Assembly: GCA_021788365.1 (NCBI GenBank)
Contig: JAJYKS010000001.1
Span: forward strand, 70,113 to 134,112
Direction of reading: 5' to 3'
DNA length: 64,000 nt
DNA from: a bacterium
Lineage (GTDB): Bacteria; Patescibacteriota; Microgenomatia; UBA1400; UBA12108
Positions 10,000 to 14,299 of this stretch are shown one piece after another. The notes beneath the pieces are model-generated. The model did no database searches and was not told the origin of the DNA. It worked only from the letters and a program-made list of their open reading frames with translations. The stretch's first letter is position 1. The number at the start of each line of letters is the position of its first letter. The position numbers and the translations under genes are program-made.

Positions 10000-11361
10000 T
10001 TATTGTCCGCTATTCAATTCTGCTGCTAGTGTACTCGCCGTATTTGCATCGGTTGTGTCTGCAGTAATCCGCGTTTTCTCGTCCTCGGTAAGCCAAGCAC
10101 GTTTTTGCATAACACCGGCCACTTCCTGTGCTAGTGCTAGTCGGCGTCGGAGGATTGTTAGGAGCTCCTGCAGCTTTCCCTGATCTACTCGACTGTCACC
10201 CACTGCTCCTTCCCAACTTTTTATGACATTTTGCAAACTGGTGACTGCGTCTGTCCAGCTTTGTACCGTCGATGTGTCATATGTTGCTGGGATATAGCCA
10301 CCAAGCTCACCAACTATAACCTGTGTGGGACAACCATTTACCACTTTGTCTATGGCGCCAACACCGATGTCTTGATAGTTTTTGTTTAGCACCTGTGAGG
10401 CTGTGTCTTTAAATGCTAAGAGGTTTTGCATGAGTTCTTCGGCGGTGTAGTGGCCATGACTCACAAATTCGCCCCCCACGATATTACTATAGCCAGCTAC
10501 CTTCTCTGCCTCTTGCTGCGATGATACTGAGCCTGCAGCGCGTAATGACGCGGCGTGTTCTAGCGTTTTGTTTGCCGACAGCGCAGCTATATTGTGACTC
10601 TTTCGCGCTGAGTCCAGGAGCGCGTAAAATGCCGATACGTTAAGCGTGGGTTGTCCCTCGAGTAGCGCGTCTTTTGAGGTGTCGCGCCACAATTTCTTGT
10701 ACAGGTCTTGGTCGCTGTAGGGCAAGACAAAGCTGATATCTTCCGCACGAATGAGCCCCAGCTCATACCGTGAGTCTGAGGAGATTTTGCGATTGTCGCC
10801 CAAGACAAGATACTCTCCCTGCGGGACTACTACCTTTTGACAGTCTGTGATGTTGGTACCGCCATATGTCGAGCGCGGGGCGGCAATGTATGGCTCAGAT
10901 AGGAGTAAACCATTACGGTAGACAAAGCCGTCGCGAAATTCTATGGTGTCTCCTGGCGTACCAATGACTCGTTTGATAAATCCTGCATCGGTCGGTTGTC
11001 CGTCTTTTTGCAAGATGGCGCGCGTGGCACTATTTTGGAATGCAACCATATCGCCAAAGCCGATCGTGCGCCTAAGATAGGTTTGACCGAAGACCGTAAA
11101 TCCAGTGAAATCGCGATACATGAGTGGTGCACTTCTGTATTCTTCAATGACTCTCTTTGATGGGTCTTCCGGTCCCCCGTCGGCTTTATCCCAAAAAAGT
11201 GATGGATACATGGATCCGGTACCTACAACGGAAACGGAGACCGGCACCAGCCCTACAGATTTTTCTATCTCATTTATGCTGATAGCGACGATGGGCATGA
11301 CCGCAGCGAGAATTATCGCCGTCGGAATAAATCGCAAGAGCTTGCCGAGTATTTTTTTCAT
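10000..11361 (-). CDS. signal peptidase I (S26) fused to a C-terminal CAP/YkwD-like domain
   Basis: N-terminal TM helix; GTGSMYPSL (SPase box B with catalytic Ser); GDNRKISSDSRYELGLI (box E). An extra ~230-aa C-terminal region carries GHYTAEEL...NKNYQDIGVGAI, like CAP/YkwD motifs. Confidence 0.7.
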   Translation of the reverse strand: MKKILGKLLRFIPTAIILAAVMPIVAISINEIEKSVGLVPVSVSVVGTGSMYPSLFWDKADGGPEDPSKRVIEEYRSAPLMYRDFTGFTVFGQTYLRRTIGFGDMVAFQNSATRAILQKDGQPTDAGFIKRVIGTPGDTIEFRDGFVYRNGLLLSEPYIAAPRSTYGGTNITDCQKVVVPQGEYLVLGDNRKISSDSRYELGLIRAEDISFVLPYSDQDLYKKLWRDTSKDALLEGQPTLNVSAFYALLDSARKSHNIAALSANKTLEHAASLRAAGSVSSQQEAEKVAGYSNIVGGEFVSHGHYTAEELMQNLLAFKDTASQVLNKNYQDIGVGAIDKVVNGCPTQVIVGELGGYIPATYDTSTVQSWTDAVTSLQNVIKSWEGAVGDSRVDQGKLQELLTILRRRLALAQEVAGVMQKRAWLTEDEKTRITADTTDANTASTLAAELNSGQ

Positions 11362-12176
11362 TGCGGACTCTTACCACAGACCTGTTTCACTTCTCGCATG
11401 ACCGATGCGCGACTCGCCTCTGGAAGCAGTGCAGCATTGTCGCCTTCTAAAAGTTCGCGACATACGACAACTTTGGCGGCAAGCAATCGCTCTTTATCTT
11501 CCTTTGTTAAACTGTCGAGCATGGTCACGGGATGTAGACCCGTGCGTTCAATGAGGTCCATGATCCCCTCACCTTTGGGATACCCCCAACTTGTGATGCG
11601 AATATCGCGACAGCGTGCATAGTCTATGGCATCTCCTGAAAAACGAGTGTTGGTTACGATCCAGGAACCCGTATTCCCGCCCTTCCACGCGTCGACAATA
11701 TCTTCATAGCGAGCGTGGATGTATAGTGTTACTTTAACATCGGTCCGCTGGGTTGGATTTTTGTGAAATTTTGCCTCGATGAACCACGTCCGATCATCCT
11801 TCACCGCTTCGACGTCTATTTCATGTGAGACACACGATCCCTGAACGATTTGATTTGTTTTACAGCTATACCCGATTGCTTCGAGGAGCAGTGCGGTATA
11901 TTGCTCGAATGGATAGCCAGAAGGACCTATTTCGGATAGTGCTTTTTTTAGATTATATTTGGAAGCATAGTGTGGCATATCCTTGCTATGGAGATATGCT
12001 TTGATGATATCGAAGATCTCACGAGTTGTGATACCGTCGTAGAGCTTGCTGTGAATGTCCGCGACCATGTCGTTTTGCACATCTTCTGGTACACCAACGC
12101 GCGAGGCAGAGGCACGAATTTTTGCTTCAGAATATGTTTCTCTTTCGCCATTTGCTTTTATAACGGTAACGGACAT
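11358..12176 (-). CDS. ATP-cone domain fused to Mrr-like (PD-(D/E)xK) restriction endonuclease domain
   Basis: N-terminal VIKANGERETYSEAKI ATP-cone; C-terminal IDVEAV...WFIEAKFHK PD-ExK nuclease core. Stop overlaps the SPase start (ATGA). Confidence 0.6.
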   Translation of the reverse strand: MSVTVIKANGERETYSEAKIRASASRVGVPEDVQNDMVADIHSKLYDGITTREIFDIIKAYLHSKDMPHYASKYNLKKALSEIGPSGYPFEQYTALLLEAIGYSCKTNQIVQGSCVSHEIDVEAVKDDRTWFIEAKFHKNPTQRTDVKVTLYIHARYEDIVDAWKGGNTGSWIVTNTRFSGDAIDYARCRDIRITSWGYPKGEGIMDLIERTGLHPVTMLDSLTKEDKERLLAAKVVVCRELLEGDNAALLPEASRASVMREVKQVCGKSPQ

Positions 12177-12186
12177 ACTCCTCCTT

Positions 12187-13566
12187 TTACACCCACGAGG
12201 CGGTGCGTATTGTTTCTAGTACAAAATAGACAAAGAGACAAAATGCTATAAGTAGTATTCCTTGTCTCGCACGCGATGGGCGTGCAAACGAGGGTAATTT
12301 GGTTTTATTCAATATTAGTATTAGTGGAAATGCGACCATCATAGCTGCAGCATTGAGGATTGCCGCAATAGTAAGTAGCGCGCGCGGCGTCTCAAATCCC
12401 ATGTGTAGAAGTGCCACTCCTCCGACTATTTCTGCCCACAATACAATATAAAATGCTCTGCCAGCGTTTACCGGCTTGTCTACTCCATTTTTTGCAAGTA
12501 ATACGTTTTCTGCCGTGATGCGAGCGGCACTCTCGTACACGCCGAGCTGGGTAGAGAAGAGCATGAGGGCTGCTACCACTAAAAAGATTGTCCCGATGAG
12601 GGGAACTGTTTTATCTCCAATTGTTGCCGCCTCAAAAAAGAGAAAATTAATATCTACTGCGCTTGCCCCTCGCGCGGTACCCGCGGCTAGCGCGGCCAAA
12701 AGCAGGATGGTCGTGAGGCCGAGTACCCAAAATACCAGAAAGTGTTCACTATTTACGAGCCGCCACCACCTTGCCCACCGCGAGCGATTTGCCGCAGTGT
12801 CGACAAAACTGTTACCTTGTATCTCTATTTCCTTAGACTTTCCCTGCAAGAGTGACTTTATTCCTGCAAAGTAGCGACCCATGCCGAATCCTTTTTCTTT
12901 TATGTAATAACTTTGCGCGAGATTAAGATTGCCACCGGCTCCCGAATATGCAAATGCACCGAGGAATGCACCGATCCCGATGCCCGGTGGAAAGAAGCGC
13001 CAGCCAGCACCTTGGCCTACAAGCCCACGCACCAGTTCTAGCCATACCTCAGGTGTGACGAGTGCGAGTGTCACCAGGGTGATAAATGGAAGACCAACCA
13101 TAATGATGGTTTTTTGTATCCGCTCCATTGTTTTATATAGTGTGCGGCCGGTCGATATGATGACGCCGGTAAGTATGAGGAGTCCTATGGCAAAAGCTTT
13201 TTCGGGCAAAGCCGGAACTAGGTAGTGAGAAATTGCCGATGTGCTGGCGGCAAAACCTGGGAGCGCCCAAGGAATGGTGGTCGAGAGTATAAACCAATAA
13301 GGAATCGCACGACTCATTTTTCGCCAGCCGACGAACACCGACTCGCCCCATGCGAGGGTATAGCGCATAGCTTCGGTGTTTAAGAAAAACTGTAACGTAA
13401 TGCCGAGCAAACCACCCCAAATGAGGCCCAGGCCGTATTGTGAGGAAAGATATGGCCAGAGGATGAGCTCACCCGACCCTAAGGCTAAACCGAGAAGAAT
13501 AAATGACGGGCCGATGGATTTTTTAAGCTCAGGTGGTTCGGGTAAGTTGCGAGGGATTTCCGGCAT
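12187..13566 (-). CDS. Nramp-family divalent metal (Mn/Fe) transporter
   Basis: GPSFILLGLALGSGELILWPYLSSQYGLGLIWGGLLGITLQ matches Nramp consensus; about 11 TM. Start chosen at the internal Met to avoid overlapping truB. Confidence 0.7.
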   Translation of the reverse strand: MPEIPRNLPEPPELKKSIGPSFILLGLALGSGELILWPYLSSQYGLGLIWGGLLGITLQFFLNTEAMRYTLAWGESVFVGWRKMSRAIPYWFILSTTIPWALPGFAASTSAISHYLVPALPEKAFAIGLLILTGVIISTGRTLYKTMERIQKTIIMVGLPFITLVTLALVTPEVWLELVRGLVGQGAGWRFFPPGIGIGAFLGAFAYSGAGGNLNLAQSYYIKEKGFGMGRYFAGIKSLLQGKSKEIEIQGNSFVDTAANRSRWARWWRLVNSEHFLVFWVLGLTTILLLAALAAGTARGASAVDINFLFFEAATIGDKTVPLIGTIFLVVAALMLFSTQLGVYESAARITAENVLLAKNGVDKPVNAGRAFYIVLWAEIVGGVALLHMGFETPRALLTIAAILNAAAMMVAFPLILILNKTKLPSFARPSRARQGILLIAFCLFVYFVLETIRTASWV

Positions 13567-13621
13567 ACTTTTTACTATACCATGTCTGGCCCAGCCCCCG
13601 ACTGACGGGTATACTATACAC

Positions 13622-14299
13622 ATGGATGAGATACTTCCGGTATACAAACCATCAGGTATAACAAGCTACGATGTTATTCGCGCGTATAAGCGCGCGGCGT
13701 GCCCCGCGTGGAAGGTGGGGCACGGTGGCACCCTGGATCCCTTTGCCGACGGCGTCTTGCTCCTACTTCTAGGCAAGGCAACAAAGCGGATGAACGAGCT
13801 GTCGGCACTACCTAAAACGTACCGAGCGACGGCAGTACTAGGAGTAAAATCAGACACTCTTGATAGAATGGGAAAGGTAGATTCAAGATTTAAGATTCAA
13901 GATTTACGAATGATAACACGGGAACAAATTGAGGACGCGGCACAGAAGTTTGTGGGGACGTATGAACAAGAGATTCCCGCCTATTCGGCGGCAAAGGTAA
14001 ACGGTCAGCCGCGATACAAATTGGCGCGTAAAGGGCAAGACCTGGAAAAGAAAACAAAGCCGGTGACAATTTATTCGCTGAATATGTTGCACTACGATGA
14101 TTTGAATCATGGTAGTGGAGTGTCGTTCGAGGCTACTGTGTCATCCGGCACGTATATCCGGCAGCTCTCTTATGATATTTTTAAGACTTTGGGCATCGAA
14201 AGCTATCTTGATTCTCTCACCCGCACGGCGATTGGTGAATTTACTTTAGAAAATTGCAGCCGGATAGAAGATTTTGGAACGCTCGTTCACGGTGTGTAG
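13622..14299 (+). CDS. truB: tRNA pseudouridine(55) synthase TruB
   Basis: MDEILPVYKPSGITSYDV...GHGGTLDPFADGVLLLLLGKATK (catalytic Asp motif); upstream ORF extension rejected. Confidence 0.8.
   Translation: MDEILPVYKPSGITSYDVIRAYKRAACPAWKVGHGGTLDPFADGVLLLLLGKATKRMNELSALPKTYRATAVLGVKSDTLDRMGKVDSRFKIQDLRMITREQIEDAAQKFVGTYEQEIPAYSAAKVNGQPRYKLARKGQDLEKKTKPVTIYSLNMLHYDDLNHGSGVSFEATVSSGTYIRQLSYDIFKTLGIESYLDSLTRTAIGEFTLENCSRIEDFGTLVHGV

Follow-up and report, generated by a model that had tools for sequence, protein, structure and literature searches.

An AF1548-family PD-(D/E)xK nuclease carrying an ATP-cone in a Microgenomates genome: a predicted nucleotide-regulated enzyme

Introduction

The ATP-cone is a textbook example of a domain that regulates dNTP synthesis, known from ribonucleotide reductases (RNRs) and from NrdR. 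To our knowledge, it has so far been studied in ribonucleotide reduction only. In NrdR of S. coelicolor, the nucleotides are contacted by K50, R51, E56 and K62, the lysines touching the inner- and outer-site nucleotides (PMC9110341).

Among nucleases, AF1548 of Archaeoglobus fulgidus (PDB 1Y88; Mrr_cat followed by PF22357, AF1548-like_C) is a structural-genomics deposit that has no ATP-cone, with about 22 residues before its core. A literature search on the fusion of ATP-cones with nucleases, on the function of AF1548 and on a link between CPR bacteria and defence returned nothing relevant except a 2007 GOS prediction of the AF1548 catalytic residues. The Mrr_cat family and fold are also those of E. 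coli Mrr and of the Type IV enzymes MspJI and AspBHI, and lateral acquisition has been described for E. coli Mrr (PMC3152355). Can2 and Card1 are ligand-activated PD-(D/E)xK nucleases of type III CRISPR systems, in which a CARF domain is the sensor.

The protein described here is encoded in a 64-kb stretch of a Microgenomates genome (hereafter the window, i.e. the whole stretch of DNA that was analysed). It is homologous to AF1548 over the core and the C-terminal helical domain (E 1.4e-34). Compared with NrdR and RNRs, its output module differs, being a nuclease instead of a reductase or a Zn-ribbon DNA-binding unit. The protein lacks the Zn-ribbon and starts with the cone, which ends after a short helix pair, without the longer C-terminal helix-loop-helix of NrdR, and no linkage to RNR genes was seen among the annotated neighbours. 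Unlike Mrr, MspJI and AspBHI, it has neither an Mrr_N winged helix nor an SRA reader. Whereas a sporadic, lateral spread, frequently within defence islands or mobile elements, is expected of Mrr-type enzymes, this gene is inherited vertically and in conserved synteny in its clade, with metabolic and stress genes as neighbours. With Can2 and Card1, the similarity is restricted to the nuclease domain, an ATP-cone stands in place of CARF and a CRISPR or cyclase context is missing; the likeness is thus an analogy of mechanism and not family membership.

Results

The gene is a complete ORF on the minus strand (Table 1). Its translation contains the motifs HEIDVEAVKDDRTWFIEAKFH that had been quoted in a preliminary description of this DNA, and the ORF was confirmed on the DNA itself. 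The family profile matches no other ORF within the 64-kb window, and no second ATP-cone was found there with the same profile. Upstream, a gap of 10 nt containing the AAGGAGG sequence separates the gene from an Nramp gene (12187..13647; NF037982, 266 bits in a profile search). Downstream, the ORF at 10000..11361 (453 aa) combines signal peptidase I with a C-terminal CAP domain (Peptidase_S26, 83 bits; TIGR02227, 84.8 bits for a cut-off of 47). A consensus scan for promoters and terminators near the nuclease gene gave sites no more numerous than expected from shuffles. The identical protein (P0001) is present in public metagenome assemblies, in which a protein search returned 513 matches (best E 4.6e-179), with hundreds of full-length homologues. 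The AlphaFold2 model of the 272-aa protein has a pLDDT of 92 and a pTM of 0.85.

Table 1. Coordinates in the window of the ATP-cone/nuclease gene, its domains and its borders.
Feature	Position	Strand	Remarks
ATP-cone/nuclease CDS	11358..12176	-	complete, 272 aa, ATG start, TGA stop; ATP-cone, then PD-(D/E)xK nuclease, then AF1548-type C-terminal domain
Shine-Dalgarno-like AAGGAGG	12180..12186	-	3 nt 5' of the nuclease ATG; read directly on the DNA
ATP-cone	11928..12176	-	residues 1-83; beta-hairpin then helices; K7 (12156-12158) and K19 (12120-12122) invariant
Junction motif (I/L)GPSGYPFE	11904..11930	-	residues 83-91; most conserved stretch of the family; from last cone helix to first nuclease helix with E91
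PD-(D/E)xK (Mrr_cat) core	11592..11909	-	residues 90-195; catalytic E91, D121, E134, K136
AF1548-type C-terminal helical domain	11376..11591	-	residues 196-267; SAM-like / helix-hairpin-helix-like fold
ATGA stop/start overlap	11358..11361	-	nuclease TGA overlaps ATG of downstream signal peptidase I-CAP ORF; plus strand 'tcat'

The fusion of an ATP-cone with an Mrr-like PD-(D/E)xK nuclease, which had been proposed from the sequence, was borne out by profile searches: ATP-cone (PF03477) scores 34.0 bits for a curated cut-off of 25.8 (residues 4-74) and Mrr_cat (PF04471) 30.7 bits for a Pfam cut-off of 21 (residues 86-192), both matches being far above chance. The predicted fold agrees. In the model, an N-terminal beta-hairpin lid lies above a helical bundle, this domain superposes on NrdR, and the core has a restriction-endonuclease-like fold. 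In the PDB, a family profile limited to the cone matches NrdR, NrdD and NrdA (E 4.4e-5 to 4.8e-3); this profile was needed, as neither the single sequence nor the full-length profile reached any ATP-cone structure. Its matches to designed helical repeat proteins were disregarded as compositional and spurious.

In the alignment, K7, E13 and K19 occupy the places of K50, E56 and K62 of S. coelicolor NrdR, three of the four nucleotide-contacting positions. The fourth, R51, corresponds to A8, which is variable in the family; in the aligned E. coli NrdR it is Ser. Among 40 diverse homologues, K7 and K19 are the sole invariant cone residues outside the hinge, and E13 is shared by 90% or more of the close homologues in alignment A1. 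A nucleotide-regulated nuclease is a reasonable prediction from these residues.

At the junction of the two domains, G84, G87, F90 and E91 are invariant in the 40 homologues, and residues 81-90 have the lowest internal pLDDT of the model (77). This motif is likely to act as a hinge. The signature of the nuclease, i.e. the E of helix 1, D and (D/E)xK, is complete, and its four residues are invariant in the same 40 homologues (33-60% identity). Three catalytic codons were checked on the DNA: D121 at 11814-11816 (gtc, reverse complement GAC), E134 at 11775-11777 and K136 at 11769-11771. E119, Y152, R156, D159 and N176 (in a T175-N176-T177 motif) are also invariant in the core, and the mean column identity among 24 homologues is 73%. 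Model comparison shows a core fold similar to that of the nuclease domains from AspBHI, MspJI, FokI, LlaBIII, Can2/Card1, Shedu and Avs. Beyond what the preliminary description had recognised, the protein has a third, AF1548-type C-terminal domain, with a solved homologue in 1Y88; this domain is probably a nucleic-acid-binding module. Two cysteines, C115 and C189, are conserved.

The family is very large and already catalogued, with at least 5,263 sequence clusters from CPR bacteria, Bacteroidota, Chlamydiota and some archaea. The fusion architecture is annotated in thousands of public proteins, and the gene in the window is an ordinary member. Homologues devoid of the cone exist (AF1548 itself and P0216), and the nuclease can therefore work without the sensor. 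No match was found in 2.9 million viral contigs or in 50,697 phage records, and among 72,556 plasmids homologues turned up on just two. In a genome scan with the single protein, a Streptomyces protein (L014; 23% identity, E 2e-4) was the sole distant match among those listed.

The neighbours of the gene in the window are TruB, Nramp, signal peptidase-CAP, Mur ligase, SodA and HAD. Among the matches listed, 18 relatives (13 genomes from the genome scan and five metagenome loci) share the order TruB / Nramp - nuclease - signal peptidase - Mur ligase - SodA. The nuclease is 55-62% identical among these relatives, within the range of its neighbours (47-80%). The signal peptidase gene does overlap the nuclease gene at the ATGA, and in 18 out of 18 relatives of the clade its start codon lies within the 3' end of the nuclease gene, with an overlap of 11-28 nt. 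As an argument for a chromosomal function, for which it had been used, this overlap is nevertheless weak, since 15 of the 50 same-strand neighbour pairs of the window overlap (30%), seven of them by exactly 4 nt. The link to the peptidase is limited to one Microgenomates clade and does not indicate a shared function. A functional tie to the signal peptidase or to secretion (SecD/SecF lie upstream in an Altiarchaeota locus and SecA in the window) was rejected as a coincidence that does not recur across clades. In this Microgenomates genome, the gene is vertically inherited, single-copy and chromosomal, and it is presumably co-transcribed with Nramp, signal peptidase, Mur ligase and SodA; this arrangement would reflect a clade-specific packing of the genome rather than a common pathway. 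Metal-related genes also occur at several loci: Nramp and SodA in the window, putative Cu-ATPases as flanking genes in L042 and a putative ZIP-type transporter in L063 (the latter two by sequence reading). This theme of metal homeostasis is too anecdotal to be retained.

No DNA methyltransferase was found among the annotated neighbours of the window or the recurrent neighbour clusters that were profiled, and no ribonucleotide reductase gene among the profiled ORFs of the window and the annotated neighbours. That the gene is not a stand-alone restriction system, as initially suggested, therefore holds on grounds other than the overlap, i.e. the synteny, the housekeeping-like divergence, the lack of a detected methyltransferase and the near-absence from mobile DNA. 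It looks like a chromosomal gene for nucleic-acid turnover.

Across clades, no neighbour is conserved in all of them, and a beta-CASP metallo-hydrolase is the sole partner found in more than one phylum. A gene for this beta-CASP/RMMBL hydrolase lies directly downstream of the nuclease gene at 34 loci in Bacteroidota and Chlamydiota. Behind the hydrolase gene, Criblamydia, Pontibacter and L078 have an archaeal-type thymidine/AMP-phosphorylase-like gene and then one for PRPP synthetase (Prs). Scans of two loci, L098 and L099, placed the phosphorylase-like genes above the TIGR02645 cut-off, at 589-602 bits. Loci of this type also contain Usp, PFK, PPK2, Hsp20, phosphoketolase, GlgP and acetate kinase genes. 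The Criblamydia beta-CASP protein is 53-64% identical to those of the Bacteroidota-type loci. Neither the 64-kb window nor the CPR loci that were examined contain the beta-CASP, phosphorylase or Prs partners, so that a reading in terms of salvage is transferred from other phyla.

Discussion

We lean slightly towards the view that, taken as a whole, this protein is a nucleotide-gated nuclease of the AF1548 family involved in the turnover of endogenous nucleic acids or in nucleotide salvage. The product would be a cytoplasmic, metal-dependent PD-(D/E)xK endonuclease whose activity is probably gated by adenine nucleotides (ATP, dATP, ADP) at the N-terminal ATP-cone. A nucleotide at the beta-hairpin/first-helix site (K7, E13, K19) would shift the last cone helices, as in NrdR, and these would pass via the invariant GPxGxPFE hinge directly into the catalytic helix bearing E91. 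Because of this continuity, the movement could reposition the active site, alter the oligomeric state, or both, while the nucleic acid would be held by the C-terminal HhH/SAM-like domain. Taken separately, gating of the nuclease by a ligand seems rather probable. A role in turnover or salvage tuned to energy or nucleotide status is a tentative proposal that may well be wrong, and restriction of foreign DNA is not a likely role. As substrate, DNA is favoured from the Mrr-type and HhH-like folds, and RNA is suggested by the beta-CASP/RMMBL partner.

The automatic NCBI name, 'restriction endonuclease', is probably misleading. It would fit a solitary Type IV (modification-dependent) or other Mrr-kind defence nuclease whose cone senses a disturbance of the nucleotide pool caused by phages, as would the Mrr_cat score above the Pfam cut-off, the resemblance to AspBHI, MspJI, FokI, LlaBIII, Can2/Card1, Shedu and Avs nuclease domains, the two plasmid copies, the signs that the nuclease/beta-CASP cassette was transferred across phyla (from the identity of the Criblamydia beta-CASP) and weak PADLOC matches to CARF-nuclease and ZorD models (residues 58-198, E 6e-4 or worse). 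Against this, Pfam finds only the ATP-cone at the N-terminus, with no Mrr_N, SRA or other reader of modified bases; the gene combines stable synteny and housekeeping-like divergence in a reduced genome, conservation is very high, the genes that recur nearby serve metabolism or stress responses rather than defence, and the family is missing from phage and viral collections. We therefore regard a defence function as quite unlikely. A structure-specific nuclease for DNA repair or recombination (Holliday-junction-resolvase-like or NucS-like), whose cone would tie repair to the supply of dNTP or ATP, is unlikely too. The JGI name of homologues ('Holliday junction resolvase-like predicted endonuclease') and the resemblance of the C-terminal domain to HhH modules of RAD51 paralogues, UvrC and Pol X/Y point in this direction, as do a Y-family polymerase gene adjoining on the opposite strand at five loci of another CPR-like clade and a neighbour in L062 resembling a UvrD/AddB-type helicase-nuclease (by sequence reading). 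However, such neighbours are sporadic and clade-specific, while the sole cross-phylum partner is an RNA-type beta-CASP protein accompanied by nucleotide-catabolic genes.

This same partner, which bears an RMMBL 'RNA specificity' domain and has aCPSF1 and the Cas14 beta-CASP ribonuclease as best NCBIfam matches, argues, with the stress-gene neighbours Usp and Hsp20, for an RNA endonuclease that starts the bulk degradation of RNA or ribosomes under energy stress and passes the fragments to a 5'-3' exonuclease of the beta-CASP type. Mrr_cat/AF1548-type cores and HhH-like domains are nevertheless typically DNA-directed, no RNA-binding domain was detected in the 272-aa protein, and the partner is absent from the window of this genome; we consider this scenario improbable, on a par with defence or slightly below it. 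The association of an ATP-cone with a nucleic-acid-binding module, parallel in layout to NrdR, could also be that of a non-catalytic, nucleotide-sensing DNA-binding regulator built on a dead nuclease fold. This is very improbable, as all four catalytic residues are invariant throughout the family, the Zn-ribbon is missing and no ribonucleotide reductase gene was found among the annotated neighbours.

If the turnover/salvage reading is extended to the whole family, its members would form a hitherto unrecognised class of 'energy-charge-gated' nucleases, in which the endonuclease is switched on as the ATP/ADP/dATP balance shifts. Products from the nucleic acid would pass to the beta-CASP exonuclease, the resulting NMPs to the AMP-phosphorylase-like enzyme, and the end products would be pentose phosphates. 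This extension is doubtful, though conceivable. If it were true, starving cells would consume or recycle nucleic acids, whether endogenous or imported, and the nuclease would be a core regulator of salvage in CPR bacteria. Many CPR bacteria have been reported to lack de novo nucleotide synthesis. CPR bacteria rely on nucleotide salvage via AMP phosphorylase and RuBisCO (PMC5113843). A nucleotide-gated turnover nuclease would give a testable handle on the control of nucleic-acid turnover in these ultra-small, salvage-dependent bacteria. More generally, if the cone gates the nuclease in thousands of genomes, the sensing of nucleotide pools would reach beyond DNA-precursor synthesis to nucleic-acid breakdown. 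The carriers of the gene include cultivable Flavobacteriaceae (Aequorivita viscosa, Arenibacter certesii) and Pontibacter actiniarum. A concrete pathway hypothesis is provided by the conserved cassette in energy-stress islands, in which the nuclease is joined by the beta-CASP hydrolase, the AMP-phosphorylase-like enzyme and Prs.

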